This document shows positions 1 to 22,193 of a DNA stretch of 64,000 bases, piece by piece (positions within the stretch are counted from its first letter, which is position 1; the number at the start of each line of letters is the position of its first letter). The DNA comes from Escherichia coli. GTDB lineage: Bacteria; Pseudomonadota; Gammaproteobacteria; Enterobacterales; Enterobacteriaceae. The notes beneath the pieces were generated by a model. That model was not told where the DNA came from. It ran no database searches and worked only from the letters and a program-made list of their open reading frames with translations. The stretch lies in the NCBI RefSeq assembly GCF_050920415.1, contig NZ_CP169309.1, one strand, 5' to 3'. The position numbers were made by a program, and so were the translations under genes.

Positions 1-411
1 GCCGGTCATACCACCGGCCCCAATGGCTGCCCCCCATGCTGCAAGGGTGGCTCCGGCGGTAAAGAATGATCCGGCAATGGCGGCAGCCCCCAGGACAATC
101 TGGAATACGCCACCTGACTTGGCCCCGGCGACTCTGGGAACAATATGAATCACAGCGCCATCAGGCAGAGTCTCATGTAACTGCGCCGTTAACCCGGACG
201 TGCTGACGTCCCGCCCGGCAATCCGTACCTGATACCAGCCGTCGCTCAGTTTCTGACGAAACGCCGGGAGCTGTGTGGCCAGTGCCCGGATGGCTTCAGC
301 CCCCGTTTTCACACGAAGGTCGATGCGGCGACCAAATCGTTGTAAATCCCCGTAAAGGCAGATGCGCGCCATGCCCGGTGACGCCAGAGGGAGTGTGTGC
401 GTCGCTGCCAT
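1..411 (-). CDS. I: tail tip assembly protein I (lambda gpI-like); partial, 3' end beyond window start
   Basis: Minus-strand translation from ATG at 409-411 reads MAATHTLPLASPGMARICLYGDLQRFG... to ...FTAGATLAAWGAAIGAGGMTG at the window edge; overlaps the 3' end of K by ~100 nt as in lambda. Confidence 0.85.
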   Translation of the reverse strand, partial: MAATHTLPLASPGMARICLYGDLQRFGRRIDLRVKTGAEAIRALATQLPAFRQKLSDGWYQVRIAGRDVSTSGLTAQLHETLPDGAVIHIVPRVAGAKSGGVFQIVLGAAAIAGSFFTAGATLAAWGAAIGAGGMTG

Positions 412-1052
412 TTGTCGGTGTACCTCTCTCGTTTGCTCAGTTGTTCAGGAATATGGTGCAGCAGCTCGCCGTCGCCGCAGTAAATTGCGGCGTGATTCGG
501 CACCGATGAACCAAAACAGCACAGCAGCACATCGCCCGGCTGTGCCGCTGACAACGGCACCTGATACAGCCCCGTCGCCTCCAGATTATCCAGATAGAGA
601 TTCTGGCCGTTACGCCACCAGTCATCCTCACGATGAAAGTCCGGCATCTCAATCCCCGCCAGATGATAAGCATCCCGGAACAGTGTGTAACAGTCCGTCA
701 CACCGTGCTCAAAGCGCCGCCCGGTGAGATGCGGCACACAGCGGAACTTATGAATCGTCCCCCGGCAGACCAGCCACCACGGCAAATCACTCTGCACCTG
801 CAGCCGCCGGTCGGCCTCACTCAGCCAGGGCAGACCACCGGGGTGGCTGTGGACCAGCGCCACAATCTCACCCTGCATTTCTGCCTGCAGCCAGTCTTCC
901 GGCGACATACGGAAATACGCCTCCGGCTCACCGGAGATATTCACGCAGGGGAAATATCTTTCCCCCTCCGGCGTGCTTACCACGAAGCCGCACGACTCCG
1001 CTGGCGCACATCGCCGGGCGTGCGCCAGAATCGCTGATTCTGTCTGTGTCAT
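309..1052 (-). CDS. K: tail tip assembly protein K (lambda gpK-like, HSHPGG JAMM/MPN-like motif)
   Basis: Track ORF 247 aa MTQTESAILAHARRCAPAESCGFVV...; the start could instead be the internal Met (MSPEDWLQ...). Confidence 0.85.
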   Translation of the reverse strand: MTQTESAILAHARRCAPAESCGFVVSTPEGERYFPCVNISGEPEAYFRMSPEDWLQAEMQGEIVALVHSHPGGLPWLSEADRRLQVQSDLPWWLVCRGTIHKFRCVPHLTGRRFEHGVTDCYTLFRDAYHLAGIEMPDFHREDDWWRNGQNLYLDNLEATGLYQVPLSAAQPGDVLLCCFGSSVPNHAAIYCGDGELLHHIPEQLSKRERYTDKWQRRTHSLWRHRAWRASAFTGIYNDLVAASTFV

Positions 1053-1057
1053 GGGAT

Positions 1058-1756
1058 TTACTGCGAAAGTTTGTTAATGGAAAGGAAGCCGCCAAAGTTG
1101 CCGACGTTATTGCGGAACTTACAACCGCTCAGGCATTTGCTGCATTTATCCTTCGTGATATCGGACGTTGGCTGGTCATATTCATCCGCGACAGCCGGAC
1201 CGCTATAACCGCACTCGTCACCGCGATAGGTCCAGGTGCAGGTGTTGGCCAGCATGATACGTCCCGGAAAAACAGCGCCATCCGTTTCCGTCGGCGTGGA
1301 CAGTACAAAGGAGGCACTCACCGCGCTCAGTTCGCTGCACTGCTCAATGCGCCAGCGGCTGATCACCTCCTGCTCCGGATCGGCATAACTGTTTCCGTTG
1401 ACGAAGTTCACCGCATCCAGAAAACGGGCGTAAACCTTACGCCGGACCACCGTTCCGCCGACCAGACTCTGCATATCTTCCGCCATCCCGGTGACCATAC
1501 CGTACAGGTTAGAAACCGTCAGCGTGGGGCGCGTACTGGTGCCTTTGCCATTCAGTTCAAAACCGCTCCCCTGAATGGGATACGGCTGATACTGTCGCCC
1601 CTGCCAGGTGACCGGCTCACCTTTTTCGTTCTGCTCATTACAGAAAAAATAACGTTCTCCACCGACCTCTGTCAGGTCGATTTCCCAGAGCACCACGCTG
1701 GCCGACTGCTCCGCACGGGTGCATTCATTCAGTGTTTCCTGCCGGATATCCTGCAT
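1058..1756 (-). CDS. L: minor tail protein L (lambda gpL-like)
   Basis: Track ORF 232 aa MQDIRQETLNECTRAEQSASVVLWEIDL...; length and sequence as recalled for lambda L. Confidence 0.9.
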   Translation of the reverse strand: MQDIRQETLNECTRAEQSASVVLWEIDLTEVGGERYFFCNEQNEKGEPVTWQGRQYQPYPIQGSGFELNGKGTSTRPTLTVSNLYGMVTGMAEDMQSLVGGTVVRRKVYARFLDAVNFVNGNSYADPEQEVISRWRIEQCSELSAVSASFVLSTPTETDGAVFPGRIMLANTCTWTYRGDECGYSGPAVADEYDQPTSDITKDKCSKCLSGCKFRNNVGNFGGFLSINKLSQ

Positions 1757-2085
1757 CAGTTCACCACCTGTTCAAACTCTGCGCTGAACTCAACACGCAG
1801 CATACTGACCCGCGACGACCATTTTGCGCAGGTCACCTTTATCTGCCGCCACTCATAAGGCGGCGTCCACAGAAAGGATTTCCAGCCCCCGTGCTCTTCC
1901 AGAAACGACTCCAGTACCGTGGCCTCCTCACGGGGGACAGAAAGCGTCACGCTGTACGTTTTCAGGTTGGCATTCAGCCCGGCAGGCGCTCGCTGAGAAT
2001 AGCCATCACCAAAGCGCACCTTTCTTACAGAAGGGACCGAAGCCACATCCATACCGGGTTTCACTTTCCAGCGGAAGGTCTTCAT
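1756..2085 (-). CDS. M: minor tail protein M (lambda gpM-like)
   Basis: Track ORF 109 aa MKTFRWKVKPGMDVASVPSVRKVRFGDGYSQRAPAGL...; abuts L and H. Confidence 0.9.
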   Translation of the reverse strand: MKTFRWKVKPGMDVASVPSVRKVRFGDGYSQRAPAGLNANLKTYSVTLSVPREEATVLESFLEEHGGWKSFLWTPPYEWRQIKVTCAKWSSRVSMLRVEFSAEFEQVVN

Positions 2086-4643
2086 CGTCCACCTCCGGAG
2101 AACAGGCCACCATCACGCATCTGTGTCTGAATTTCATCACGGGCACCCTTGCGGGCCATGTCATACACCGCCTTCAGAGCAGCCGGACCTATCTGCCCGT
2201 TCGTGCCGTCGTTGTTAATCACCACATGGTTATTCTGCTCAAACGTCCCGGACGCCTGCGACCGGCTGTCTGCCATGCTGCCCGGTGTACCGACATAACC
2301 GCCGGTGGCATAGCCGCGCATCAGCCGGTAAAGATTCCCCACGCCAATCCGGCTGGTTGCCTCCTTCGTGAAGACAAACTCACCACGGTGAACAATCCCC
2401 GCTGGCTCATATTTGCCGCCGGTTCCCGTAAATCCTCCGGTTGCAAAATGGAATTTCGCCGCAGCGGCCTGAATGGCTGTACCGCCTGACGCGGATGCGC
2501 CGCCACCAACAGCCCCGCCAATGGCGCTGCCGATACTCCCGACAATCCCCACCATTGCCTGCTTAAGCAGAATTTCTGTCATCATGGACAGCACGGAACG
2601 GGTGAAGCTGCGCCAGTTCTGCTCACTGCCGGTCAGCATCGCTGCCATATTCTGTGCAATACCATCAAAGGTCTGCGTGGCTGCACTTTTTACCTGCGAC
2701 ATACTGTCCGTGGCGCTCTCTTCCCACTCACTCCAGCCGGACTTCAGGCCTGCCATCCAGCTCCCGCGAAGCTGGTCTTCAGCCGCCCAGGTCTTTTTCT
2801 GCTCTGACATGACGTTATTCAGCGCCAGCGGATTATCGCCATACTGTTCCTTCAGGCGCTGTTCCGTGGCTTCCCGTTCTGCCGGCCGGTCAGTCAGCCC
2901 CCGGCTTTTCGCATCAATGGCGGCCCGTTTTGCCCGTTGCTGCTGTGCGAATTTATCCGCCTGCTGCGCCAGCGCGTTCAGGCGCTCCTGATACGTAACC
3001 TTGTCGCCAAGTGCAGCCAGCTGGCGTTTGTACTCCAGCGTCTCATCTTTATGCGCCAGCAGGGATTTCTCCTGTGCGGACAGCTGGCGACGTTGTGCCG
3101 CCTCCTCCAGTACCGCGAACTGACTTTCTGCCTTCCACAAATCCCGGCGCTGCTGGCTGATTTTCTCATTTGCTCCGGCATGCTTCTCCAGCGTCCGGAG
3201 TTCTGCCTGAAGCGTCAGCAGGGCAGCATGAGCACTGTCTTCCTGACGATCGCCCGCAGACACCTTCACGCCGGACTGTTTCGGCTTTTTCAGCGTCGCT
3301 TCATAATCCTTTTTCGCCGCCGCCATCAGCGTGTTGTAATCCGCCTGCAGGATTTTCCCGTCTTTCAGTGCCTTGTTCAGTTCTTCCTGACGGGCGGTAT
3401 ATTTCTCCAGCGGCGTCTGCAGCCGTTCGTAAGCCTTCTGCGCCTCTTCGGTATATTTCAGCCGTGACGCTTCGGTATCGCTCTGCTGCTGCGCATTTTT
3501 GTCCTGTTGAGTCTGCTGCTCAGCCTTCTTTCGGGCGGCTTCAAGCGCAAGACGGGCCTTTTCACGATCATCCCAGTAACGCGCCCGCGCTTCATCGTTA
3601 ACAAAATAATCATCCTTGCGCAGATTCCAGATGTCGTCTGCTTTCTTAAACGCAGCCTCTGCCTTAATCAGCATCTCCTGCGCGGTATCAGGACGACCAA
3701 TATCCAGCACCGCATCCCACATGGATTTGAAGGCCCGCGCAGTCCTGTCTGCCCAGGTCTCCAGCGTGCCCATGTTCTCTTTCAGGCGGCGGGTCTGGTC
3801 ATCAAACCCTTTCGTTGCGGCCTCGTTCGCCGCCTGCAATGCCCCGGCTTCATCGCCGGAACGCTGCAACTGAGCAACATACGCAATCTGCTCCGCCGTC
3901 ACGTTATGGAACTGGCGTGCCATCGCCGTCAGCCCCGACGTCGGGTCTGTGGTCAGCTTCCCGAAGGCTTCAGCGACCTTGTCCACCTCCACGCCGGATG
4001 CAGAGGAGAAACGCGCCACACTCTGGCTGATGGACGCAATCTGAGCCTCACCGCTTACCCCCGCCTTAACCAGTGCGCTGAGTGACTCGCTGGTCTGGTT
4101 AAACGTCAGCCCTGCCGCCTGCCCGGCTCTGGACAGGACCAGCATGCGATCTGCCGTCAGACCCGACTGATTGCCGGAAAGGACCAGCGTTTTGTTGAAA
4201 TCGGACAGGGTTGAGTTGCCCTGATACCAGGCATACGCCAGCGCACCGGTCGCCACCGCCAGCGAGGTGGCCCCCACCATCGGCAGGGTGATCGCACCGG
4301 CAAGCCCCCTGAACATGGGGATCATCCCGCCGAAGGAGTCCTTCACCTGCCCCCCCTGTTGCAGCAGGATCAGCCACGGACTTTGCCCGCCTGCAAGCTG
4401 CGTGGCCACGTCGGTGAACTGTGCAGGCAGCATACGCATGGCGGCTTTATACTGCCCGACGGAAATCCCCGCTTTCTGTGCAGCCAGCGCCTGTCGGCTC
4501 AGCGACTGTTCAACGACTGCCGCTGTTTTTTTCGCATCACTTTCCGTACCGGAAAAATGACGCCTGACTCTGGCCATCTGCTCGTCAAATCTGGCCGCAT
4601 CCAGACTTAAATCAACGACCAGATCGCCTACCGGTTCAGCCAT
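2082..4643 (-). CDS. H: tail tape measure protein (lambda gpH-like)
   Basis: Track ORF 853 aa MAEPVGDLVVDLSLDAARFDEQMARVRRHFSG...; Ala/Gln-rich coiled-coil body with a Gly-rich C-terminal region. Confidence 0.95.
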   Translation of the reverse strand: MAEPVGDLVVDLSLDAARFDEQMARVRRHFSGTESDAKKTAAVVEQSLSRQALAAQKAGISVGQYKAAMRMLPAQFTDVATQLAGGQSPWLILLQQGGQVKDSFGGMIPMFRGLAGAITLPMVGATSLAVATGALAYAWYQGNSTLSDFNKTLVLSGNQSGLTADRMLVLSRAGQAAGLTFNQTSESLSALVKAGVSGEAQIASISQSVARFSSASGVEVDKVAEAFGKLTTDPTSGLTAMARQFHNVTAEQIAYVAQLQRSGDEAGALQAANEAATKGFDDQTRRLKENMGTLETWADRTARAFKSMWDAVLDIGRPDTAQEMLIKAEAAFKKADDIWNLRKDDYFVNDEARARYWDDREKARLALEAARKKAEQQTQQDKNAQQQSDTEASRLKYTEEAQKAYERLQTPLEKYTARQEELNKALKDGKILQADYNTLMAAAKKDYEATLKKPKQSGVKVSAGDRQEDSAHAALLTLQAELRTLEKHAGANEKISQQRRDLWKAESQFAVLEEAAQRRQLSAQEKSLLAHKDETLEYKRQLAALGDKVTYQERLNALAQQADKFAQQQRAKRAAIDAKSRGLTDRPAEREATEQRLKEQYGDNPLALNNVMSEQKKTWAAEDQLRGSWMAGLKSGWSEWEESATDSMSQVKSAATQTFDGIAQNMAAMLTGSEQNWRSFTRSVLSMMTEILLKQAMVGIVGSIGSAIGGAVGGGASASGGTAIQAAAAKFHFATGGFTGTGGKYEPAGIVHRGEFVFTKEATSRIGVGNLYRLMRGYATGGYVGTPGSMADSRSQASGTFEQNNHVVINNDGTNGQIGPAALKAVYDMARKGARDEIQTQMRDGGLFSGGGR

Positions 4644-4685
4644 ACCGGACTCCTCCTGCGATCCCTTCTGATACTGTCATCAGCA

Positions 4686-5069
4686 TTACGTCATCTCCGT
4701 CATGTCCGCCACATCCGGGGAAGCGGGGATAACTTCATTCCCGTCCGGGCCAAAGCGGACACCTCCGGCAAGCCCTGCCGCTTTCTGCATCAGCACATCA
4801 TCTTCAGGCTCTTCGTCAGCCTCGCGCCGGTTCAGCAGACTGAAATCCAGCGGATGCATATCCGGATCGCTGAAAAACAGGCTGAGCACGGTGTACGTCA
4901 GCCCGGAAAAGTGCATATCCAGCAGAACATCATGAAAATAATGGGTACTGTAAAAGCGGTGCCAGTCGGCATACTCCGTGGATGACATCCCGGCAAGCAT
5001 GGCACGCCAGTCAGGTCGCCCCATCTCACGCGCCAGTTTCAGGGCAAAACTCAGCTCACCGTCGAACAC
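4686..5069 (-). CDS. T: tail assembly chaperone T-frame segment (partner of G in the G-T fusion); C-terminally truncated relative to lambda T
   Basis: Track ORF 127 aa ...FDGELSFALKLAREMGRPDWRAMLAGMSSTEYADWHRFYSTHYFHDVLL...; ends ...DMTEMT* 43 nt upstream of the H start instead of overlapping it. Confidence 0.75.
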   Translation of the reverse strand: MFDGELSFALKLAREMGRPDWRAMLAGMSSTEYADWHRFYSTHYFHDVLLDMHFSGLTYTVLSLFFSDPDMHPLDFSLLNRREADEEPEDDVLMQKAAGLAGGVRFGPDGNEVIPASPDVADMTEMT

Positions 5070-5472
5070 TTTCCCGCAGAAACAGGCTCTGCGGGCCCGG
5101 CGTCCTCTGTCTGTTCAGGGCATTATTCACCACAAACTCATACATACCAGACAGCCGGTACACCACGTTTTCAGCATGAGAAATTGCCTCCGTGGGCCAG
5201 GTGGTAAGCACTTCCTGCTCAATCTGTTTAACGGCTTCATTCATGGACGGCAGCTTTGTCTTCTGCGGATGGTTATGCCACAGGGACATCGCCACCAGAA
5301 ACGCGCCGGTTCTGATGGCGTCTTCCACAGTAAACTTCCGGTTGCTGTCTGACTCCGCCTGTTCTGCCTGCCGTTTCATCAGGGCGAGATGCTCAATGCG
5401 CTGCAGGGCTGACAGTTCAGAAAGCGTGACGGTCACACCGTTATGTTCAAATGATTCGGTTTTCAGGAACAT
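5056..5472 (-). CDS. G: tail assembly chaperone G (lambda gpG-like) with frame-changed C-terminus
   Basis: Track ORF 138 aa MFLKTESFEHNGVTVTLSELSALQRIEHLALMKRQAEQ... ending ...VVNNALNRQRTPGPQSLFLRESVRR; slippery heptamer GGGAAAG at 5069-5075 (minus strand). Confidence 0.8.
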   Translation of the reverse strand: MFLKTESFEHNGVTVTLSELSALQRIEHLALMKRQAEQAESDSNRKFTVEDAIRTGAFLVAMSLWHNHPQKTKLPSMNEAVKQIEQEVLTTWPTEAISHAENVVYRLSGMYEFVVNNALNRQRTPGPQSLFLRESVRR

Positions 5473-5487
5473 CGCTGACTCTCCGGA

Positions 5488-6227
5488 TTAACTGTCGGTG
5501 ACAGTGATTTCTGCAACCGCAGCAAGTTCACCATTACCGGATAAAACCGGAATGTTGACCTTACCTGCAGCAACGCCTTTCACGGTGATGGTCATACCAC
5601 TGACCGACACGGTGGCTTTTGTTTTATCCGCTGACACCGCACGGAAGCTCTTGTCAGTTGCGCCCTCCGGCTGGAATGCCACGGTCAGCGTGGTGCTCTG
5701 CCCTTTCACCACCGAGGAGCTGGCAGGCGTCACGGTCATACCGGTTGCCGCTGTTACCGTGCTGCGATTTCTGCCATTGACGGACGGCCCACATTGGTGA
5801 CCTTCACCGTACGGGTGATCACTTCCTTCGCCGTCACCGCCTTACCGATACTGCTGACCCAGCCACGGAACACATCGACCGTGCCGTTCGGGAAGCGGAT
5901 TTTATAGGCACGGGTATCACCTTCATTAAACCACGCCAGCAGCGCCTGCTGCCCCTGCTCTCCGGGCATCCACGCCAGCGTGAAGCTGGTATCTCCGGCG
6001 GATTTCTGCCCCTGCCCGGTCGCGGTCCAGTCCGCATCTTCATCATCGAGATAACTGTCGTCATAGGACTCAGCGGTCAGTTCGCCGGGCGTCAGGTCTT
6101 TAACTTTAGCCAGACGCGACCAGTCAACGTCTGAAAGCGGGTTCGCATAAGGGTCGCCGCTCCCGTTATAAACCCACAGGGTGGTCCCGGCACCTTTCAC
6201 CGGTATTGCTGGATTTGGTACAGGCAT
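5488..6227 (-). pseudogene. V: major tail tube protein V (lambda gpV-like) split by a single-base frameshift into a tube-domain ORF (5754-6227) and an Ig-like C-terminal domain ORF (5488-5739)
   Basis: ORF 5754-6257 contains [20 protein letters not shown]...[11 protein letters not shown]; ORF 5488-5739 ([26 protein letters not shown]...ITVTDS) is in a different frame; the two are contiguous in lambda V. Confidence 0.75.
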
Positions 6228-6234
6228 ATCGTCC

Positions 6235-6630
6235 TCACATTTCATAGGTAATGACATAAGTCAGATCGGCAGAACTCCACAGGCCCGCATCATCGTCGCG
6301 CCGGTAGTCATAGCCACTGGCCACCATACTGGTGATCAAATCTGACAGTGCCGGGATATCGCTCATCACCGGATAAATCCGGGACTCCATCCACGCATCC
6401 AGCTCTGAATCCGGCACCTGAGCAGGCAGGAAAACTTCGATATGCAGTTCCGCCTGCCAGGTATCGCTGTCCAGCTCTTCGCCCGTGTATTCAGCGCCGG
6501 TGAGATAAACGGCAACTGCCGGAAAATCCGCCTCATCAAAAACAGCGGGGCGACCATCAAAAAACGTCGCCCCGGTGTCATGCTTCTCCAGTGCATCCAG
6601 TACGGCTGCACGGAGTTCAGTATGTTTCAT
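6235..6630 (-). CDS. U: tail terminator protein U (lambda gpU-like)
   Basis: Track ORF 131 aa [31 protein letters not shown]... Confidence 0.9.
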
Positions 6631-7205
6631 CGCTTTATTACCATCCTCAGTTGATGCTGCAGCGCATAGCCCAGCTCTTTCGGAAGACGCTCACGCCGTA
6701 TCCGCTCAATATTCTGTTTAAACGCCGTGGTCAGCGGCACCGCCATCGGGATTTTCACCACATCAATGGGGTAACGGTTTTTCCCGGCCACACGCTGCAT
6801 GACATGCCAGCGGCCATTTTTCAGTTGCTGAATAAACGCGCCGGGAATACGACGGTTTCCCACCACAAGCACGCTGCCGCCACCTTTCAGGGCTGAACGC
6901 TGCCCCTTTTTACGACGCCTGCGTCGGGACAGGACAATCCGCGCGTTACCCAGCTTTATTACGGGCAAATCCCCCCGGTTAACCTTGATTCTGGCCTGCG
7001 GATTTTTGACCGTGGCCCTTTTCAGCCTGGCCCTTTCCTTTACCAGTTTCCGGCGTACCTTTGTCTCACGGGCAACCTGTGACGCCGACTGCGATATCGC
7101 GGATGAAGCAACGCGGTTAATGGCCATTGCGGCAGCACCGGGCACCGCCGTTCTGCTGATACGGCTGAGGTTTTCAACGGCCTGCTCAAGACCTTTTATG
7201 GCCAT
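6627..7205 (-). CDS. Z: tail completion protein Z (lambda gpZ-like)
   Basis: Track ORF 192 aa MAIKGLEQAVENLSRISRTAVPGAAAMAINRV... Confidence 0.9.
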   Translation of the reverse strand: MAIKGLEQAVENLSRISRTAVPGAAAMAINRVASSAISQSASQVARETKVRRKLVKERARLKRATVKNPQARIKVNRGDLPVIKLGNARIVLSRRRRRKKGQRSALKGGGSVLVVGNRRIPGAFIQQLKNGRWHVMQRVAGKNRYPIDVVKIPMAVPLTTAFKQNIERIRRERLPKELGYALQHQLRMVIKR

Positions 7206-7216
7206 ACATCCCCCTT

Positions 7217-7570
7217 TCAGCGGCGACGGTTAACGGCAGGCGGTACGCCCCGCCCAAGCCAGAGATGACAGCTTCCGCCATCATCCGGCGAAATCCGGTC
7301 TATCCAGAAGTTTTCCTCACCGATGGTCAGCGTGTCGCCGCGCCGCAGCTGCCGCACATCATCAGTCCGGACAAACATGGACGGGCTGGAGCCTTCAACG
7401 CGCACGCCCGGTCCGGCATAGCTGATATTTTCAGGGTCATCAAAAACACCACGTATCACAGCACCGGACTGCTCACCGGATGTCATGGTGGCTGACGTTC
7501 CCATGTACCCGCGTATCGTTTCATCGGCGCGGGCAATGGCAGCATCGAACAGGTTATCGAAATCAGCCAC
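7217..7570 (-). CDS. FII: head-tail connector protein FII (lambda gpFII-like)
   Basis: Track ORF 117 aa MADFDNLFDAAIARADETIRGYMGTSATMTSGEQSG... Confidence 0.9.
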   Translation of the reverse strand: MADFDNLFDAAIARADETIRGYMGTSATMTSGEQSGAVIRGVFDDPENISYAGPGVRVEGSSPSMFVRTDDVRQLRRGDTLTIGEENFWIDRISPDDGGSCHLWLGRGVPPAVNRRR

Positions 7571-7581
7571 AGCGCCTCCCG

Positions 7582-7977
7582 TTATTGCATTCTGGCCAGG
7601 CCGCGCTCTGTCATTTCGGCTGCCACACCGGCAGAGACACGGAACGCCGTTCCCGGCAGCACAAATGCCACAGGTTCATCCCGCGTGGCGTGAAGTGCAT
7701 CAGTATGCAGCGTCACCAGTGCCACAACCGTGACCAGATCAGCCGTATCAGTCACGGTATCCGGCTGCGCTGATACCACCTCATTTTCATGTCCGGTCAG
7801 CGCATTTTCCGGGCTGACAGATGTGTCCTGACCGGCAGCGTCATCCGTGTCATCAAGCTCCTCTTCCAGCTCTGCCACACGGAGCGCCAGTTCTTCTTTC
7901 GTCCCCGTCAGGCTGACATCACGGTTCAGTTGTTCACCCAGCGAGCGGAGACGGGCAATCAGTTCATCTTTCGTCAT
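7582..7977 (-). CDS. FI: DNA packaging protein FI (lambda gpFI-like)
   Basis: Track ORF 7582-8016; start chosen at internal Met (MTKDELIARLRSLGEQLNRDVSLTG...), giving 131 aa. Confidence 0.85.
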   Translation of the reverse strand: MTKDELIARLRSLGEQLNRDVSLTGTKEELALRVAELEEELDDTDDAAGQDTSVSPENALTGHENEVVSAQPDTVTDTADLVTVVALVTLHTDALHATRDEPVAFVLPGTAFRVSAGVAAEMTERGLARMQ

Positions 7978-8018
7978 GGACTCCTCCACAGAGAGAAAAT
8001 GGCCCCGAAGGGCCATGA

Positions 8019-9044
8019 TTACGCCAGTTGTACGGACACGAACTCATCAGGGTCAGCCAGCAGCATCAGCGGTGCTGACTGAATCATGGTGAACTCACGC
8101 GCCGGATCGCCGGTGGTCACCCAGTTTTTCGGGTAACGGGCAGAGGCGTTAATGCCTTCGCGCTGTGCGTCCGCATCCTGAATGCAGCCATAGGTGCGCA
8201 GACCGCGTGCCTGAGTGTTACCCAGCACCATCGTGTTGTCCGGCAGGAAGTTCTTTTTGACGCCGTTTTCCACGTACTGTCCGGAATACACGACGATGGC
8301 CACATCGCCATACATCCCCTTATAGGACACCGCTTTGCCCAGGTCTTTCACCGCTGTCTCCAGCTCGGAATTAGAGCCACGACGGGTATCCAGCTTCTCC
8401 CTGACGGCTTTGAAGGAACGGAACAGCGCCCAGCCTTTCGGATCGAACACGATGATATTCACCACACCGCTGGCGTTCAGCGCGTAGGCTTCGATATCGT
8501 CGGTCGGGTCATACGTGGACTTGTCACGCTTGCTCCACTCCGTGCCGCCGGACTGCGTGATGTTATTCTCCTCACTGCGGCCCATATCCACCTCAACCGG
8601 ATCGAAGGCTTCACCGGTCATGGTGTATTTGCCCTTAAGCACGGCAGAAACTGCCTGCATCTCTTCGACCTGAGCAATGGCCAGCTCTTCGTCACGCATG
8701 TTCTGCATGATGATGCGACGGCGGCGGTAAGCCGGGTCCGCCAGATTCTGCGGATCTTCATCCGGCAGGCGACGCAGGGTCATCTGCGGATTCACTTCAT
8801 GCTTCGGCTTGACATATCCCGGCGTAAATTCAGAGGTGGAGCCGCCACGGGAACGGATAACCTCACCGGAAACAATCGGCGAAACGTACAGCGCCATGTT
8901 TACCAGTCCCGGAATTTGTGAGAGATAGACTTTCTCCGTGGTGAAGGGATAGCTCTCACGGAAAAAGAGACGCAGAAACAGCGGATCAAACTTAAATTTC
9001 TGCTCATTTGCCGCCAGCAGTTGGGCGGTTGTGTACATCGACAT
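8019..9044 (-). CDS. E: major capsid protein E (lambda gpE-like)
   Basis: Track ORF 341 aa MSMYTTAQLLAANEQKFKFDPLFLRLFFRESYPF... Confidence 0.95.
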   Translation of the reverse strand: MSMYTTAQLLAANEQKFKFDPLFLRLFFRESYPFTTEKVYLSQIPGLVNMALYVSPIVSGEVIRSRGGSTSEFTPGYVKPKHEVNPQMTLRRLPDEDPQNLADPAYRRRRIIMQNMRDEELAIAQVEEMQAVSAVLKGKYTMTGEAFDPVEVDMGRSEENNITQSGGTEWSKRDKSTYDPTDDIEAYALNASGVVNIIVFDPKGWALFRSFKAVREKLDTRRGSNSELETAVKDLGKAVSYKGMYGDVAIVVYSGQYVENGVKKNFLPDNTMVLGNTQARGLRTYGCIQDADAQREGINASARYPKNWVTTGDPAREFTMIQSAPLMLLADPDEFVSVQLA

Positions 9045-9100
9045 AAAAAAATCCCGTAAAAAAAAGCCGCACAGGCGGCCTTTAGTGATGAAGGGTAAAG

Positions 9101-9433
9101 TTAAACGATGCTGATTGCCGTTCCGGCAAACGCGGTCCGTTTTTTCGTCTCGTCGCTGGCAGCCTCCGGCCAGAGCACATCCTCATAACGGAACGTGCCG
9201 GACTTGTAGAACGTCAGCGTGGTGCTGGTCTGGTCAGCAGCAACCGCAAGAATGCCAACGGCAGCACCGTCGGTGGTGCCATCCCACGCAACCAGCTTAC
9301 GGCTGGAGGTGTCCAGCATCAGCGGGGTCATTGCAGGCGCTTTCGCACTCAATCCGCCGGGCGCGGTTGCGGTATGAGCCGGGTCACTGTTGCCCAGCGG
9401 CTGGTAATGGGTAAAGGTTTCTTTGCTCGTCAT
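9101..9433 (-). CDS. D: head decoration protein D (lambda gpD-like)
   Basis: Track ORF 9101-9439; start at second Met gives 110 aa [27 protein letters not shown]... Confidence 0.9.
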
Positions 9434-9442
9434 AAACATCCC

Positions 9443-10742
9443 TTACACTGGTGTGTTCAGCAAATCGTTAACGGCATCAGATGCCGGGTTACCTGCAGCC
9501 AGCGGTGCCGGTGCCCCCTGCATCAGACGATCCAGCGCAGTGTCACTGCGCGCCTGTGCACTCTGTGGTGCTGCGGCCAGAATGCGGCGGGCCGTTTCCA
9601 CGGTCATACCGGGGGTTTCTGCCAGCACGCGTGCCTGTTCTTCGCGTCCGTGAGCCTCCTCACAGTTGAGGATCCCCATAATGCGACTGTTTTCTGCCGC
9701 AACCGCTGCGGTGATCTGCGCGTTCACGTCCGGCTGCGCCGCGCTGGCGTTTTCGCCCTCCGTCGCTGGCACCACGTCAGTAACGTCAGCCTGCGAAGCA
9801 GTGGCTGAAACAGTTGTTGATTGAGTCTCTTTGGTCATTCGCCCTCCTGAGAGACGGGATTTACGTGCATCCAGTGCATCACGCATGACGGTGATCGCAT
9901 CGGTGCTGTTAACAAGTTCATCAGCCAGTCCGGCATCAATGGCCTCCTGACCGCTGTACACTGCAGCCTCGGTATCCAGCACAGCCTGCACGGACAGGCC
10001 GGTATATGCCGACACCTTCTGCGCAAACATCTGGCGGGTTGCGTCCATCCGGGACTGCAGTGTCTCCCGGACGTCATCCGGAAGATGGCTGTAGGGGTTG
10101 CCATCCACCTTATGGCTGCCGCTGTAAATCAGCGTGATTTCCACACCCTGTTTCTCCAGCGCAGCACCGTAATTACTGTGAGCCATCATGACGCCGATGG
10201 AGCCTGTCCGGGCGGTCTGCGTGACCAGACGCCGGGAGGCGGCACTGGCAAGCAGCTGACCTGCACTGCAGTTCATGTCGTTGGCCAGCGCCCATACCGG
10301 TTTTATGTCACGCACACGGGCGATGATGTCAGCGCAGTCAAATGCCCCCGCCACCATCCCGCCGGGCGTGTCCATATCGAGCAGAATGCCGTCCACCATC
10401 GGATCGCTGGCAGCCTGTTGCAGACGGGCGATAATGCCGTTGTAACCGGTCATCCCCGAATACGGCTGCAGCGCCCGCGTCCGGCTGACCAGCGTGCCGG
10501 AAACCGGCAGCACGGCGATGCCGTTCATGACCTGATAACTGCGGGCCTGTCGTGGTCCGTCATCATCACCGGATAACGCCAGCGTCGCGGGTGTCTCCGG
10601 GGCAGTCAGGCTGTCACCGGACACCGCATCTGTCAGGCGGCTGATCCCAAGCTGGCCTGCAAGCGCACAAAAGAAAACCCGCGCATAGGCGGGTTCAAGC
10701 ATCAGCGGCTCATTAAAGGCCATACTGGCAATATGCGGGAGA

Positions 10743-10762
<20 letters not shown>
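9443..10762 (-). CDS. C: head maturation protease/scaffold C (lambda gpC-like; Nu3 scaffold expected nested in-frame in its 3' part)
   Basis: Track ORF 9443-10897; product from the in-frame GTG at ~10760-10762 is 439 aa (VTAELRNLPHIASMAFNEPLMLEPAYARVFF...), overlapping the portal gene end as in lambda. Confidence 0.85.
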
Positions 10763-14443
<3,681 letters not shown>

Positions 14444-14469
<26 letters not shown>

Positions 14470-14989
14470 TCAGCAACCCCGGTATCAGTTCATCCAGCGC
14501 GGCTGCTTTGTTCATGGCTTTGATGATATCCCGTTTCAGGAAATCAACATGTCGGTTTTCCAGTTCCGGAAAACGCCGCTGCACCGACAGGGGGATCCCG
14601 TCGAGAATACTGGCAATTTCACCTGCGATCCGCGACAGCACGAAAGTACAGAATGCGGTTTCCACCACTTCAGCGGAGTCTCTGGCATTTTTCAGCTCCT
14701 GTGCGTCGGCCTGCGCACGCGTAAGTCGATGGCGTTCGTACTCAATAGTCCCTGGCTGGAGATCTGTCTCGCTGGCCTGCCGCAGTTCTTCAACTTCCCG
14801 GCGCAGCTTTTCGTTCTCAATTTCAGCATCCCTTTCGGCATACCATTTTATGACGGCGGCAGAATCATAAAGCACCTCATTACCCTTGCCACCGCCTCGC
14901 AGAACGGGCATTCCCTGCTCCTGCCAGTTCTGAATGGTACGGATACTCGCACCGAAAATATCAGCCAGCTGCTTTTTGTTGACTTCCAT
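14444..14989 (-). CDS. nu1: terminase small subunit Nu1 (lambda gpNu1-like)
   Basis: Track ORF 181 aa MEVNKKQLADIFGASIRTIQNWQEQGMPVLRGGGKGNE... (winged-HTH N-terminus). Confidence 0.95.
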
Positions 14990-14999
14990 TGTTCATTCC

Positions 15000-15200
15000 A
15001 CGGACAAAAACAGAGAAAGGAAACGACAGAGGCCAAAAAGCTCGCTTTCAGCACCTGTCGTTTCCTTTCTTTTCAGAGGGTATTTTAAATAAAAACATTA
15101 AGTTATGACGAAGAAGAACGGAAACGCCTTAAACCGGAAAATTTTCATAAATAGCGAAACCCCGCGAGGTCGCCGCCCCGTAACCTGTCGGATCGCCGGA
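15000..15200 (-). other. cos: cos site (cosB-cosN-cosQ); 12-nt cohesive-end sequence GGGCGGCGACCT present as reverse complement at ~15167-15178
   Basis: Reverse complement of 15001-15200 matches the lambda cos region as I recall it (GGGCGGCGACCTCGCGGG...TTTATGAAAATTTTCCGGTTTAAGGCGTTTCC...; other side ...CGGGTCCTTTCCGGCGATCCGACAGGTTACG); sits immediately upstream of Nu1. Confidence 0.8.
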
Positions 15201-15377
15201 AAGGACCCGCAAAATGATAATAATTATCATCTACATGTCACAACGTGCATCTACGCCATCAAACCACGTCAAATAATCAATTATGACGCAGGTATCGTAT
15301 TAATTGATCCGCATCAACTTAACGTAAAAACAACTTCAGACAATACAAATCAGCGACACTGAATACGGGGCAACCTC

Positions 15378-15572
15378 ATGTCAACGAAGAACAGAACCCG
15401 CAGAACAACAACCCGCAACATCCGCTTTCCTAACCAAATGATTGAACAAATTAACATCGCTCTTGATCAAAAAGGGTCCGGGAATTTCTCAGCCTGGGTC
15501 ATTGAAGCCTGCCGTCGGAGGCTAACGTCAGAAAAGAGAGCATATACATCAATTAAAAGTGATGAAGAATGA
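15378..15572 (+). CDS. ylcI: DUF3950-family small protein (DLP12 YlcI-like)
   Basis: Track ORF 64 aa MSTKNRTRRTTTRNIRFPNQMIEQINIALDQKGSGNFSAWVIEACRRRL...; recalled as YlcI-like, ribbon-helix-helix-like. Confidence 0.6.
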   Translation: MSTKNRTRRTTTRNIRFPNQMIEQINIALDQKGSGNFSAWVIEACRRRLTSEKRAYTSIKSDEE

Positions 15573-15736
15573 ACATCCCGCGTTCTTCCCTCCGAACAGG
15601 ACGATATTGTAAATTCACTTAATTACGAGGGCATTGCAGTAATTGAGTTGCAGTTTTACCACTTTCCTGACAGTGACAGACTGCGTGTTGGCTCTGTCAC
15701 AGGTTAAGTAGTTTGAATGATTAGCAGTTATGGTGA

Positions 15737-15943
15737 TCAGTCAACCACCAGGGAATAATCCTTCATATTATTATCGTGCTTCACCAACGCTGCCTCAATT
15801 GCCCTGAATGCTTCCAGAGACACCTTATGTTCTATACATGCAATTACAACATCAGGGTAACTCATAGAAATGGTGCTATTAAGCATATTTTTTACACGAA
15901 TCAGATCCACGGAGGGATCATCAGCAGATTGTTCTTTATTCAT
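15737..15943 (-). CDS. ybcW: hypothetical protein (DLP12 YbcW-like)
   Basis: Track ORF 68 aa [40 protein letters not shown]... Confidence 0.6.
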
Positions 15944-16186
15944 TTTGTCGCTCCATGCGCTTGCTCTTCATCTAGCGGTTAAAATATTACTTCAAATCTT
16001 TCTGTATGAAGATTTGAGCACGTTGGCCTTACATACATCTGTCGGTTGTATTTCCCTCCAGAATGCCAGCAGGACCGCACTTTGTTACACAACCAATACT
16101 ATTAATTGAAAACATTCCTAATATTTGACATAAATCATCAACAAAACACAAAGAGGTCAGACCAGATTGAAACGATAAAAACGATA

Positions 16187-16639
16187 ATGCAAACTACGCG
16201 CCCTCGTATCACATGGAAGGTTTTACCAATGGCTCAGGTTGCCATTTTTAAAGAAATATTCGATCAAGTGCGAAAAGATTTAAACTGTGAATTGTTTTAT
16301 TCTGAACTAAAACGTCACAATGTCTCACATTATATTTACTATCTAGCCACAGATAATATTCACATTGTGTTAGAAAACGATAACACTGTGTTAATAAAAG
16401 GACTTAAAAAGGTTGTAAATGTTAAATTCTCAAGAAATACGCATCTTATAGAAACGTCCTTTGATAGGTTGAAATCAAGAGAAATCACATTTCAGCAATA
16501 CAGGGAAAATCTTGCTAAAGCAGGAGTTTTCCGATGGGTTACAAATATCCACGAACATAAAAGATATTACTATACCTTTGATAATTCATTACTATTTACT
16601 GAGAGCATTCAGAACACTACACAAATCTTTCCACGCTAA
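16187..16639 (+). CDS. ybcV: DUF1398-family protein (DLP12 YbcV-like)
   Basis: Track ORF 16106-16639; start chosen at internal Met [32 protein letters not shown]... Confidence 0.6.
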
Positions 16640-16929
16640 ATCATAACGTCCGGTTTCTTCCGTGTCAGCACCGGGGCGTTGGCATAATGCAATACGTGTA
16701 CGCGCTAAACCCTGTGTGCATCGTTTTTAATTATTCCCGGACACTCCCGCAGAGAAGTTCCCCGTCAGGGCTGTGGACATAGTTAATCCGGGAATACAAT
16801 GACGATTCATCGCACCTGACATACATTAATAAATATTAACAATATGAAATTTCAACTCATTGTTTAGGGTTTGTTTAATTTTCTACACATACGATTCTGC
16901 GAACTTCAAAAAGCATCGGGAATAACACC

Positions 16930-17223
16930 ATGAAAAAAATGCTACTCGCTACTGCGCTGGCCCTGCTTATTACAGGATGTGCTCAACAGACGTTTACTGT
17001 TCAAAACAAACAGACAGCAGTAGCACCAAAGGAAACCATCACCCATCATTTCTTCGTTTCTGGAATTGGGCAGAAGAAAACTGTCGATGCAGCCAAAATT
17101 TGTGGCGGCGCAGAAAATGTTGTTAAAACAGAAACCCAGCAAACATTCGTAAATGGATTGCTCGGTTTTATTACTTTAGGCATTTATACTCCGCTGGAAG
17201 CGCGTGTGTATTGCTCAAAATAA
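16930..17223 (+). CDS. bor: Bor lipoprotein (serum-resistance lysogenic conversion protein)
   Basis: Track ORF 97 aa MKKMLLATALALLITGCAQQTFTVQNKQTAVAPKET...; lipobox LITGC; opposite strand to late genes as in lambda. Confidence 0.85.
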   Translation: MKKMLLATALALLITGCAQQTFTVQNKQTAVAPKETITHHFFVSGIGQKKTVDAAKICGGAENVVKTETQQTFVNGLLGFITLGIYTPLEARVYCSK

Positions 17224-17254
17224 TTGCATGAGTTGCCCATCGATATGGTCAGCT

Positions 17255-17716
17255 CTATCTGCACTGCTCATTAATATACTTCTGGGTTCCTTCCAGTTGT
17301 TTTTGCATAGTGATCAGCCTCTCTCTGAGGGTGAAATAATCCCGTTCAGCGGTGTCTGCCAGTCGGGGGGAGGCTGCATTATCCACGCCGGAGGCGGTGG
17401 TGGCTTCACGCACTGACTGACAGACTGCTTTGATGTGCAACCGACGACGACCAGCGGCAACATCATCACGCAGAGCATCATTTTCAGCTTTCGCATCAGC
17501 TAACTCCTTCGTGTATTTTGCATCGAGCGCAGCAACATCACGCTGACGCATCTGCATGTCAGTAATTGCCGCGTTCGCCAGCTTCAGTTCTCTGGCATTT
17601 TTGTCGCGCTGGGCTTTGTAGGTAATGGCGTTATCACGGTAATGATTAACAGCCCATGACAGGCAGACGATGATGCAGATAACCAGAGCGGAGATAATCG
17701 CGGTTACTCTGTTCAT
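17255..17716 (-). CDS. Rz: spanin inner-membrane subunit Rz (i-spanin)
   Basis: Track ORF 17255-17728; contains [39 protein letters not shown]...; lambda Rz-like. Confidence 0.9.
17314..17496 (-). CDS. Rz1: spanin outer-membrane lipoprotein subunit Rz1 (o-spanin), embedded in Rz in the +1 frame
   Basis: Track ORF 60 aa [46 protein letters not shown]...; lipobox VVGC and Pro-rich segment. Confidence 0.85.
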
Positions 17717-18210
17717 TGCTGACCCCACAAACAGATTTCACGCTCAATCTCACGACGAGTCATGAGACCTTTCCATTGCTTACCGCCAGCATATGTCCAG
17801 CGACGTAGCTGATCACATGCGCCTTTGATATCGCCCTGGTTTATTTTGCGAAGAAGCGTCGATGTTCTGAAATTGCCAGCACCCACGTTGTAAACGAATG
17901 AGTAAAGAGCGCCGCGCATTGTTTCCGGTATATCGACTTTGATGTACGGGTTAATTTGTCTGGCGACCGTGGCAAGGTCTTTATTCAGGAGGGCTTTGCA
18001 TTCTGCTTTGGTATACGTTTTACCGAGCATGATGTCTTTTCCTGTATGCCCGTGACATACAGTCCATACACCAACAATATCTTTGTATGGTATGTAGCTG
18101 ACACCTTCCAGACCATCGTTACCACTTGGGCCAGTGATTAACACTGATGCTATAGCAATTGCTCCGCCACCAATAGCAGCAGCAACGGCTTTTCGTAATG
18201 ATGGAGGCAT
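17713..18210 (-). CDS. R: SAR endolysin (phage-21 R / DLP12 RrrD-type lysozyme)
   Basis: Track ORF 165 aa [44 protein letters not shown]...; N-terminal Gly/Ala-rich signal-arrest-release helix followed by a T4-lysozyme-like catalytic region. Confidence 0.85.
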
Positions 18211-18425
18211 TATTCACCTCTCGCAGCCTTGCGCTTATCTTCTTTAATCTTGAAATAAAGGTTTGTCAGGTACGTCAGCAGGCCAAATACCAGGCTACCC
18301 AGCACACCTATTGCTGCCCACTGTGAGGGCGTGACTTTATCGAGCAGCTGTAAAAACCAGTAACCGGCACTACCTGCTGAGGTGCCATAGGCGACACCCG
18401 TTGTTAACTTATCCATGGATTTCAT
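18210..18425 (-). CDS. S: pinholin (phage-21 S21 / DLP12 EssD-type holin)
   Basis: Track ORF 71 aa [71 protein letters not shown]; two TM segments and a charged C-terminus. Confidence 0.8.
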
Positions 18426-18532
18426 AACCCCACCTCGCAGACAAAGCGGGTGTAAATTGAGGGAATACTACGAAACGTAACAGACTCGGAGTCAGTGAAT
18501 AACTCAGGTATTGGGTTATCAGCTAATATCGA

Positions 18533-18570
18533 GACTCAAAAAATGGAAAAACCCGCTCGACGGCGGGTTT
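18533..18570 (-). terminator. putative rho-independent terminator on the late-gene strand, upstream of S
   Basis: Minus strand reads AAACCCGCCGTCGAGCGGGTTT followed by TTCCATTTTTTGAG (GC-rich stem plus T-run). Confidence 0.45.
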
Positions 18571-18998
18571 AAGCTGTGTGACGAAGTAACCACTCTTAAC
18601 AGCATAACCAATTTTTTACGTACGTAAACCACTAAATGATATTTGCGAGAATGCTACCGAGTATTGAAAACACCACTACAAATACATAAGCAAATCTCAA
18701 CAAATAACCAACAAATAATTTCCAGTGTTATTTTTAGCCGATTTAAATTGAACCTTCAAATTATAGAGCACTTATAAATAACAGCCGTTAATATAAATTG
18801 GCTAATAGATTTATTTTTATTCAGCCAAGAGCTATAAATAGGATTCGATAGAAAAAAGTTCAGATAAAAATAGAGATCTACTTCACAAATCAAACGAGAA
18901 ACCAAAACTTACATCTTGAAATAATCACATTGATTAGATGAATATTTATCGCGCAGTGACATCATTTTTTAATAATAGTTCAAAAAAAAGGGCTCACG

Positions 18999-20096
18999 AT
19001 GAAAAAATTAACAGTGGCAATTTCTGCTGTAGCTGCATCAGTACTGATGGCGATGTCTGCTCAGGCAGCTGAAATTTATAATAAAGACAGTAACAAGCTG
19101 GATCTGTACGGGAAAGTTAATGCTAAGCACTACTTCTCCTCTAATGATGCAGATGATGGTGATACTACTTATGCCCGTCTTGGCTTCAAAGGTGAAACCC
19201 AAATCAACGATCAGCTGACTGGTTTCGGTCAGTGGGAATATGAATTCAAAGGCAACCGCGCTGAATCTCAAGGTTCCTCCAAAGACAAAACCCGTCTTGC
19301 ATTTGCAGGCCTGAAATTCGGTGACTACGGCTCAATCGATTACGGCCGTAACTACGGTGTAGCATACGACATCGGTGCGTGGACTGACGTTCTGCCAGAA
19401 TTCGGTGGCGATACCTGGACCCAAACAGATGTGTTCATGACTGGTCGTACCACTGGTGTTGCAACCTATCGTAACAACGACTTCTTTGGTCTGGTTGATG
19501 GTCTGAACTTTGCTGCTCAGTACCAAGGCAAAAACGATCGTAGCGATTTCGATAACTACACTGAAGGTAACGGTGATGGCTTCGGTTTCTCTGCTACCTA
19601 TGAATACGAAGGATTCGGTATCGGTGCAACTTATGCGAAATCTGATCGTACCGACACTCAAGTTAATGCAGGGAAAGTTCTTCCTGAAGTATTTGCTTCC
19701 GGTAAAAATGCAGAAGTTTGGGCCGCAGGTCTGAAATATGACGCTAACAACATTTACCTGGCCACTACCTATTCTGAAACCCAGAATATGACTGTATTTG
19801 CTGATCACTTCGTTGCTAATAAAGCTCAAAACTTCGAAGCTGTTGCACAATATCAGTTCGATTTCGGTCTGCGTCCGTCCGTTGCTTACCTGCAATCTAA
19901 AGGTAAGGATCTTGGAGTATGGGGCGATCAGGACTTAGTCAAATATGTTGATGTAGGTGCAACCTATTACTTCAACAAAAATATGTCTACTTTCGTTGAT
20001 TACAAAATCAACCTGCTTGACAAAAATGACTTCACTAAAGCACTCGGTGTAAGCACTGATGACATCGTTGCTGTAGGTCTGGTTTACCAGTTCTAA
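18999..20096 (+). CDS. nmpC: outer membrane porin (NmpC/Lc-type general porin), apparently intact
   Basis: Track ORF 365 aa [46 protein letters not shown]...VGLVYQF; signal peptide and C-terminal aromatic residue typical of OmpC-family porins; lies between Q and S on the opposite strand as in DLP12/PA-2. Confidence 0.9.
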
Positions 20097-20104
20097 TCTG
20101 ATTA

Positions 20105-20146
20105 CGAAAAAGATATGTTGCGGGAGGCTTTGCCTCCCCAACATAT
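20105..20146 (-). terminator. putative late terminator tR' (minus strand), also usable as convergent terminator for nmpC
   Basis: Palindrome ATATGTTGGGGAGGC-AAAG-CCTCCCGCAACATAT followed on the minus strand by CTTTTTCG; ~100 nt downstream of a promoter-like sequence after Q. Confidence 0.45.
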
Positions 20147-20233
20147 AAGTGGCTCCCTCAAGCCACTTCCTTTAGGAGCACAACCTTGCTTCTAACTATA
20201 TAAACCTTCTGTTATATATTACCCTTTATTTTT

Positions 20234-20259
20234 GGGGGCGTTGCAACGCCCCATTTTTA
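20234..20259 (+). terminator. putative rho-independent terminator on the plus strand downstream of nmpC
   Basis: GGGGCGTTGCAACGCCCC followed by ATTTTTAA. Confidence 0.5.
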
Positions 20260-20285
20260 ATAACTTTTAGTAAACAACTGGCATA

Positions 20286-20669
20286 TTAATTAGAGTTATT
20301 AACAACGATATCCATCTCTAACCGGATATCTAATGCCATTAACATCCCTTCAATTATACCCTCAGCCTTCTGTAACCTTTTCCCGATATAACCATCAGAG
20401 CAGCAATGCTTACCTGCCAGTGACATGAATGTCATACCGACTACATAATAATCTACTAATAAATCGTGCAAATCGCTGTTGTTCTTTTTCAGACGGGCCA
20501 TGCACCCGCAAATGATCATCGCGTCATCGTCACAACATTGCGGGCGAGATTTTACTTTTGAAGTAATTAATCCCTTAAAACCGGCGGCAATGGACGACCA
20601 GGTCACATCTTCATGATTATTAGCCGCCCACGCTCCCCAACGCTCAAGAACCATCTGAATATCACGCAT
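20286..20669 (-). CDS. Q: late-gene antiterminator Q (phage-82 / DLP12 QuuD type)
   Basis: Track ORF 20286-20684; contains [34 protein letters not shown]...[18 protein letters not shown]... (127 aa from this Met); Cys cluster consistent with a zinc-binding Q. Confidence 0.8.
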
Positions 20670-20751
20670 CAACTTACTCCACAAAAATCAGACCAGAACG
20701 CCAATTACAAGCAAAAATCAACAAAATAGTATTAGTTGATTGTTATCTCTG

Positions 20752-20892
20752 ACTTCATACTCCTGCTCCTGTCAGGGTTTTGGCGTAATTCTTCAGTATC
20801 CGGTAATCGGTCAAAACAGAACCAGGAAAACGATATAAGCGCAGGCGCACCCAGCGGCGGCGAAGACGCTCTGCCATATAAGACTCAAACAT
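20752..20892 (-). CDS. ylcG: small DUF3927-like protein (DLP12 YlcG-like)
   Basis: Manual minus-strand translation [45 protein letters not shown]; start overlaps the rusA stop; below track size cutoff. Confidence 0.5.
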
Positions 20893-21254
20893 CATTCATT
20901 CCCCATTTCGGTGATGGTCAGTTCCAGCCTCCCACCTTTGGTAACAGGCATCTTCACAACGCGGTAATCAACGACCTGAGCATCATCCAGCCAGAAACCT
21001 GCTTTGGTGAGTGCGTCAAAAGCGGCCTTTTGCAGATTATCCAGGTCACGGCGACGGCGATCCGGCATGTGGCACTCAATACGGATTTTCACTGGCATAG
21101 CCAGGCCGATATCCAGCATTGCGTTTTTAATGATTCGGGTGACGTTATCGCGGTATGCCTGCCCTTCTGCGCTGATGTGTGTGCGCCCGCGATTATGGCG
21201 GTAATAGCGGTTATTGCTCGGAGGCCAGGGTAGTGTGATGTGGTAAGTATTCAC
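20892..21254 (-). CDS. rusA: Holliday junction resolvase RusA
   Basis: Track ORF 20892-21317; 120 aa from the GTG at 21252-21254 ([37 protein letters not shown]...); start overlaps the ybcO stop. Confidence 0.85.
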
Positions 21255-21541
21255 GCCTTGATTACCCCCTCTTTCAGCCAGATAACCTGCGTTCTCGCCA
21301 TACCTTCCAGCGCGCATTCTTTTGCGTACTCAGCATCGACAAAATGCGTGCGGCGGTCGATTTCGTCGTGACAGGCAGAACAGGCAATGGTGGCAATAAG
21401 GTCTGGCGGTTTAATACCGGTGCCGCACAATCCAGCCAGCCGGATATGTGCCAGTACAGACGTTTCAGGGTTGCCATTACATACGCCAGTGATTCTTACC
21501 TGGCATTCCCGACCACGCGCTGCTTTTCTCAAATCAGCCAT
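21251..21541 (-). CDS. ybcO: DUF1364-family protein (DLP12 YbcO-like, Cys-rich putative nuclease)
   Basis: Track ORF 21251-21580; start chosen at [35 protein letters not shown]... Confidence 0.7.
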
Positions 21542-21704
21542 GATTCCTCCTTGCTGCCAGTCGCAACCATTTTTTATCAACCAGGCTAGCGGTATATCCG
21601 AGCAGTGTTGGTATTTCGGATGGCTTCAGCTCAGGCTTACGCTTACGACGATTTGGTACTCTGTAGATGTGTCCGTTCATGACACGAATAAGCGGTGTAG
21701 CCAT
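21534..21704 (-). CDS. ninE: NinE-like small protein
   Basis: Manual translation [56 protein letters not shown]; ATG overlaps the ybcN stop (TAATG); below track size cutoff. Confidence 0.6.
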   Translation of the reverse strand: MATPLIRVMNGHIYRVPNRRKRKPELKPSEIPTLLGYTASLVDKKWLRLAARRNHG

Positions 21705-22159: not shown

Positions 22160-22193
22160 GCTTCACCTCCGCAGAGGTCAAACGCTGGATGCA

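Follow-up and report, generated by a model that had tools for sequence, protein, structure and literature searches.

Organization of the Prophage and the Adjacent Host DNA

The window analyzed here is a stretch of 64,000 nucleotides of Escherichia coli DNA (contig NZ_CP169309.1), in which a lambda-like prophage on the minus strand (1..35707) is followed by host DNA. The far end of the prophage is located beyond the window. The prophage is composed of a lambda-type late region joined to early and lysis genes of the DLP12 type. Positions 1-15178 (minus strand) are colinear with lambda from 15183 to 1 at 98.7% identity, and the late genes are arranged in the lambda order, namely nu1, A, W, B, C/nu3, D, E, FI, FII, Z, U, V, G, T, H, M, L, and K. 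The DLP12-type early and lysis region covers positions 15178-35707 and is 99.5% identical to the prophages occupying the same site in MS 85-1, 20KM2222, and others. The integrase gene is found at the prophage end, beside the argU tRNA-Arg(tct) gene (35710-35786).

Several further features of the prophage can be described. Two cargo genes are encoded on the opposite strand. The first is a porin of the OmpC/NmpC-like type (365 aa; 18999-20096, plus strand), and the second is a DUF4041 protein (24799-26022, plus strand), which is named a SNIPE-associated domain protein in the annotations of related prophages and may be anti-phage. In the vicinity of the K start (918, minus strand), just upstream of the position at which K is annotated to begin, one base more than in the lambda reference is present, and E. 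coli prophages have it likewise. The ORF of the K region encodes a C40 peptidase of 247 aa, compared with the 199-aa K annotated in NC_001416. Gene FI carries a 3-bp deletion (7749-7751, minus strand) with respect to lambda and to all three E. coli prophages used in the alignments below; this deletion is in-frame, and the reading frame is kept, unlike in V, G, and T. The lengths of A-runs (A7 or A8) at the intergenic positions 9065, 23046, and 24607 differ from those of close relatives, which may represent either natural homopolymer polymorphism or consensus error in one of the compared assemblies.

The host DNA (35708-64000) extends from fimZ/sfm to glxR. Over these 28,293 bp, the window differs from the sister strain MFDS1022581 (NZ_CP169399.1) by one SNP (44983, in cysS) and no gaps, which corresponds to 99.996% identity. 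The argU site is empty in MFDS1022581, and the prophage, which exceeds 35 kb and occupies the DLP12/argU site (junction 35708), represents a very recent gain or loss relative to this strain. When the prophage was compared with its closest relatives, no coding 1-bp indels were found in the ~32 kb outside the region described below. A generally poor assembly was considered and ruled out, since the 28 kb of host DNA show zero gaps and only intergenic A-run differences occur elsewhere in the prophage.

Gene V Is Interrupted Between Its Two Domains

Gene V, which encodes the major tail protein, is located on the minus strand and is present in two parts. The N-terminal part is an ORF for the tail-tube domain (5754..6227, minus strand), which starts with MPVPNP and consists of 153 native codons followed by IAAR and a TAA stop, so that the V ORF as written ends after 157 codons. 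The C-terminal part is an ORF of 83 aa (5488..5739, minus strand; MTVTPASS...TDS) for the Ig-like (Big_2) domain. This ORF begins at the internal Met164 codon and is read in the -1 frame. Between the native codons of the two parts one G is absent after codon 153, at window position 5768/5769, which converts GAAGATCGC into GAAATCGC. The site of the missing base (5766..5771, minus strand) reads GAAGATC in all relatives and GAAATC here. In the alignment with lambda (NC_001416) and three E. coli prophages (L001, L002, and L006), the relatives have GCAGAAGATCGCAGC at the break, and the window has GCAGAAATCGCAGC. The loss removes the G from a GATC (Dam) site and does not fall in a homopolymer.

The reinsertion of this G into V restores a continuous ORF of 246 codons. 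The protein encoded by the repaired gene is the same as V of the prophage at the ydfJ site of MFDS1022581 (L002), annotated as WP_001360639.1; 9 residues distinguish it from lambda V. In the Pfam search, Phage_TTP_12 was assigned to residues 18-152 of V (E 2e-70), with matches to the PDB entries 2k4q (N domain) and 6p3e, and Big_2 was assigned to residues 161-239 of the repaired V, with a match to the PDB entry 2l04 (C domain). The break is located in the linker that separates Phage_TTP_12 from Big_2, and both domains are intact. In all respects tested, apart from the continuity of its frame, the gene is lambda V. It has the N-terminal tube domain of a gpV-type protein and the Z-U-V-G-T-H order of a lambda-type late operon, but the in-frame fusion to Big_2 within an ORF of ~246 codons is missing, because Big_2 is intact yet in the -1 frame.

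These results agree with the sequence-only reading, in which V had been described as split by a single-base frameshift at the boundary of the tube and Ig domains. The two ORFs that it had listed, 5754-6227 and 5488-5739, were both recovered on the minus strand, and the base missing after codon 153 is indeed located in the interdomain linker. The lambda V sequence on which that description relied is accurate.

Companion Lesions in Genes G and T

Single-base losses are also present in the two genes that follow V in the operon. The gene of the tail assembly chaperone, G (5056..5472, minus strand), undergoes a frameshift after approximately codon 118, where CCCC is shortened to CCC at ~5118-5121, and acquires the new tail LNRQRTPGPQSLFLRESVRR followed by a stop. 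In the T reading frame (4686..5069, minus strand), GAGGATG is changed to GAGATG at ~4694-4696. As a result, the frame is 18 codons short and terminates with ...DMTEMT and a stop. The slippery heptamer of the G/GT junction, GGGAAAG (5069..5075, minus strand), is present but out of register through the upstream lesion, which shifts the G frame 44 nt upstream of it. The index of the heptamer modulo 3 is 1 here and 2 once G is repaired, and the codons over the motif are CGG GAA AGT, where the repaired frame would have G GGA AAG. After the repair of both G and T, the G-T segment becomes identical to that of the ydfJ-site prophage (L002).

The sequence context of the three losses is not uniform. A run of at least three identical bases occurs at one of the three sites (CCCC in G), while the other two consist of GG (T) and a single G (V). 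By inspection, a Dam/Dcm motif is found at the V lesion only (GATC), and the G and T lesions are located outside such motifs. Methylation alone can therefore not account for the three losses together. The lesions together span 1,073 bp, which confirms the earlier observation of three frame lesions within ~1.1 kb with the rest of the morphogenesis genes intact. A comparison with the closest prophage relatives had been proposed as a check, and in this comparison each of the three lesions is a 1-bp deletion with respect to lambda and the three prophages.

An Exact Block Shared with the Prophage at the ydfJ Site

All three deletions are located within a block (3172..6335) of 3,164 bp that has 0 substitutions compared with the ydfJ-site prophage of MFDS1022581. 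The block comprises the 5′ part of H, the whole of T, G, and V, and the 3′ end of U, and its flanks differ from the same prophage by up to ~7%. The left edge falls within the tape-measure gene H (2082..4643, minus strand), which is intact and encodes 853 aa; no record of this exact H protein sequence was found. Each deletion is at least 567 bp away from the block edge, and the tally of differences from the ydfJ-site prophage within the block is 3 indels and 0 substitutions. The region is multicopy in the sister genome MFDS1022581, where 2 places match a 70-mer of V and 6 match the V-G-T region. Such a sharp mosaic patch in the argU prophage suggests, from the pattern of sequence identity, a recent recombination between resident lambdoid prophages.

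The composition of this tally can be compared with the expected proportion of indels among mutations. Spontaneous indels in E. coli amount to ~1/10 of substitutions. In the wild-type mutation-accumulation lines of Vibrio, indels amount to ~1/5 of substitutions (PMC5854121). The comparison of the window with its relatives gives ~40 substitutions per indel event. The probability that three of three events are indels is 5e-3 at an indel-to-substitution ratio of 1/5, 8e-4 at ~1/10, and 1e-5 at ~1/40. The position of the lesions was considered in a similar manner. Of the prophage sequence in the window, 8.9% belongs to the block, and under uniform placement the probability of three hits within it is ~7e-4, a value that is only indicative, as the block was found post hoc from relatives of the lesion region.

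Distribution of the Lesions in Other Genomes

The interrupted arrangement was searched for in other phages and genomes. Among the matches listed, the V-G-T region is 2,004 bp long in all 25 phage and 40 genome matches, compared with 2,001 bp here. The 70-mer that spans the V lesion is not matched exactly in any of the complete E. coli genomes; all 2,213 places, distributed over 1,973 of 5,426 genomes, carry the extra base. The search of ~15 billion proteins for the exact sequences of the truncated V (in the forms of 157 and 167 aa), the 83-aa Ig ORF, the shifted G, and the short T returned none of them.

The features by which a pseudogene is recognized, i.e., a lesion shared by relatives or by other assemblies, or other signs of decay, are not seen at V, G, and T. 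The lesions are private, the block is free of substitutions, and the other prophage genes are intact. What is seen corresponds to the pattern of an assembly error, in which single-base indels are private to one assembly and their repair restores known intact genes. The host part of the window provides a different case. The gene allD (ureidoglycolate dehydrogenase; 54196-55245, plus strand) has an internal stop at codon 57, which the annotation of the sister assembly shows as well. As judged by this comparison, allD is a real, shared pseudogene, in contrast to the private lesions of V, G, and T.

Origin of the Three Deletions

The explanation that best fits these findings is that all three single-base losses, including the one that breaks V, are residual consensus errors of long-read sequencing and do not represent the DNA of the organism. 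On the basis of sequence comparison, we estimate the probability of this explanation at roughly 65%. In the proposed mechanism, the H'-T-G-V-U' stretch would be an exact copy of a stretch in the second lambdoid prophage (ydfJ) of the lineage. Short reads have no unique placement within an exact repeat that exceeds their fragment size, and a repeat of 3.2 kb would exceed it by far. Deletion-type errors of the long reads would then escape polishing inside the repeat, while the adjacent unique DNA would be corrected. The true genes would be an ordinary V of 246 codons and a normal G and G-T, and the prophage would be structurally complete. For this mechanism we infer that the genome of the window was assembled from long reads and carries a second copy of the block, which is known from the sister strain MFDS1022581 and not from the window's own genome.

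Errors of this kind are described in the literature. In benchmarks of polishing with short reads, most of the errors left over were located in repeats, and such errors give rise to frameshifts (Wick and Holt 2022, Polypolish, PMC8812927). The motif GATC is error-prone in nanopore sequencing, although the errors there are mainly miscalls and not deletions (PMC11610603), and the position of the V lesion in a GATC site serves as a lead only toward a nanopore error. Similar changes occur in the sister assembly. In a single copy of the multicopy element ISEc62 (L002 7565-9529), one base is lost from a GGG run in istA and one from an A6 run in istB, leaving GG and A5; the annotation marks both genes as frameshifted. 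A private 1-bp deletion is also found in the portal gene of the sister ydfJ prophage (L002 ~15063), and this gene, too, is annotated as frameshifted. The deletions in ISEc62 and in the portal gene are probably unpolished errors in repeats as well.

Two arguments of the sequence-only reading have to be modified in the light of consensus errors in a repeat. It was reasoned that an artefact is less likely because the V site is not a homopolymer. The description of the site is correct, but the inference is weak when set against lesions that are private and a block with 3 indels and 0 substitutions. The three lesions were also called a striking local cluster. The cluster is present; it is, however, as expected from unpolished long-read errors in an exact repeat (PMC8812927). 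Assembly errors had themselves been named in that reading as a refuting outcome, and the present evidence favors it. A biological origin of the lesions is, in turn, unlikely because of the indel-only spectrum, the placement within the block, the lack of any other occurrence, and the clean surroundings.

The alternative in which the three deletions are real, recent, and private mutations that have made the prophage newly defective is possible, but we regard it as doubtful. Lambdoid prophages, for example those of O157 Sakai, are well known to carry small inactivating lesions, and frameshifted genes are common among such prophages in nature. The lesions are, moreover, present in the given sequence, and a real pseudogene, allD, is found in the same window. 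The ~60 kb around the lesions looks accurate, which indicates that the assembly is not generally poor, and classic long homopolymers are lacking at two of the three sites. These points are opposed by the combination of three indels with zero substitutions in a 3.2-kb block and by the confinement of all lesions to 1,073 bp, with ~32 kb of other prophage genes left untouched. Selection does not explain the presence of three lesions, because one suffices to inactivate the tail. Furthermore, none of the three occurs in any relative or other assembly, whereas the allD lesion is shared. If the mutations were real, they would represent an ordinary and very recent inactivation of a lambdoid tail module, with a mild interest in the three hits within one recombination patch.

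A related scenario assumes that the deletions are real and arose simultaneously. Here, gene conversion or double-strand-break repair would have copied the H'-T-G-V-U' stretch from the ydfJ prophage to the argU prophage with the participation of a -1-prone polymerase of the Pol IV type. The lesions coincide with an apparent recent recombination patch, whose sequence is exact inside and divergent on both sides. Each of them removes a G or a C in a -1 event, and Pol IV makes -1 deletions in break repair. The same pattern is predicted more simply by an assembly error, and no evidence here separates the two. No substitutions accompany the deletions, and a second example is absent from the 2,213 natural copies of V and from the V-G-T matches listed. 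We hold such an event to be very improbable. If it had occurred, the block would be the footprint of frameshift-biased, error-prone repair synthesis, by which a complete prophage would have become instantly tail-less with a tube-only V.

Finally, it is hardly conceivable that the split V is a functional recoding element, in which some ribosomes shift by -1 near the end of the tube ORF and add the Ig domain to a fraction of subunits. The tube ORF and the -1 frame of the Ig ORF do overlap, both being open over 88 nt (5754-5841), and programmed frameshifting adds Ig-like domains in some phages (for SPP1, see the reference in PMC8718954). This overlap, however, lacks both an in-register X XXY YYZ heptamer and any stretch of at least 5 identical bases, which effectively rules out recoding. 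The arrangement is not conserved in any other copy (2,213 places; ~15 billion proteins), and exactly one base separates it from the normal fused V.

Consequences for the Prophage and Its Annotation

The outcome for the tail module depends on which explanation holds. If the deletions are consensus errors, annotation should list the prophage as structurally intact instead of as a defective one with three pseudogenes. Clusters of single-base frameshifts in exact repeats shared between prophages would then serve as a warning sign when long-read assemblies are scanned. The knowledge of gpV and of its Ig-like domain is unchanged under either outcome.

If the deletions are real, the effects would extend over all three genes. 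The V product would be a protein with the tube domain only, built of 153 native residues and IAAR, and re-initiation of the Ig domain from Met164 may or may not occur. The G protein would be devoid of its last 22 residues, and T would be truncated. In lambda, gpG and the frameshift product gpGT, which is formed by the heptamer mechanism, are both required (PMC3296357). In the window, a -1 slip at GGGAAAG would re-enter the old tail of G and not T. Since the lesion in G puts the slip site out of register, gpGT could not be made, and the G lesion by itself would abolish gpGT and tail assembly regardless of the state of V. Excision, replication, head building, and lysis would still be possible in such a prophage, but the formation of tails would not.

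The possibility that a truncated V is functional had been raised from the sequence. According to the work reviewed in PMC8718954, the N domain of gpV corresponds to residues 1-156, and the removal of the C domain leads to a ~100-fold loss of activity with tails still formed. The suggestion is thus broadly fair for V alone, since tails form without the C domain; it becomes moot with the lesions in G and T, and the cost of ~100-fold has to be added.

Comparison with Known Systems

The closest known system is gpV of lambda, which shares with the window the U-V-G-T-H context, 97.8% DNA identity over 2 kb, and the order of the domains. The difference is that lambda gpV is continuous, while V in the window is interrupted after codon 153, with its domains in different frames. 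An even closer likeness is found for the WP_001360639.1 allele of V, carried by the ydfJ prophage of MFDS1022581 and by JCKP02. After the G is restored, V of the window is identical to this allele in both protein and DNA, and the same applies to G and G-T after their repair. The copies of WP_001360639.1 are intact and annotated as normal, in contrast to the copy in the window, which has three 1-bp deletions and is located at argU and not at ydfJ.

The mutants of lambda in which the C domain of V is affected (2010 work, as summarized in PMC8718954) are an experimental counterpart of the truncated V. The gpV-N construct of residues 1-156 is close to the predicted product of residues 1-153, and these mutants form tails. 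However, they have a normal G and GT, whereas in the window G, the register of the slip site, and T are all damaged, so that tails are not expected. The layout of the split V is reminiscent of the pair gp17.1 and gp17.1* of SPP1, in which the tube and Ig-like domains are likewise encoded in adjacent overlapping frames. This likeness to gp17.1* is one of layout only, as the split V has neither a slippery site nor conservation and is one base away from the fusion.

The lesions of the window probably fit best among the errors described in PMC8812927, which they resemble in being 1-bp deletions that cause frameshifts. Here they are confined to a substitution-free stretch longer than the short-read fragment, and the neighboring DNA is clean. 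They differ from typical errors of homopolymer length in that only one of the three sites has at least three identical bases.
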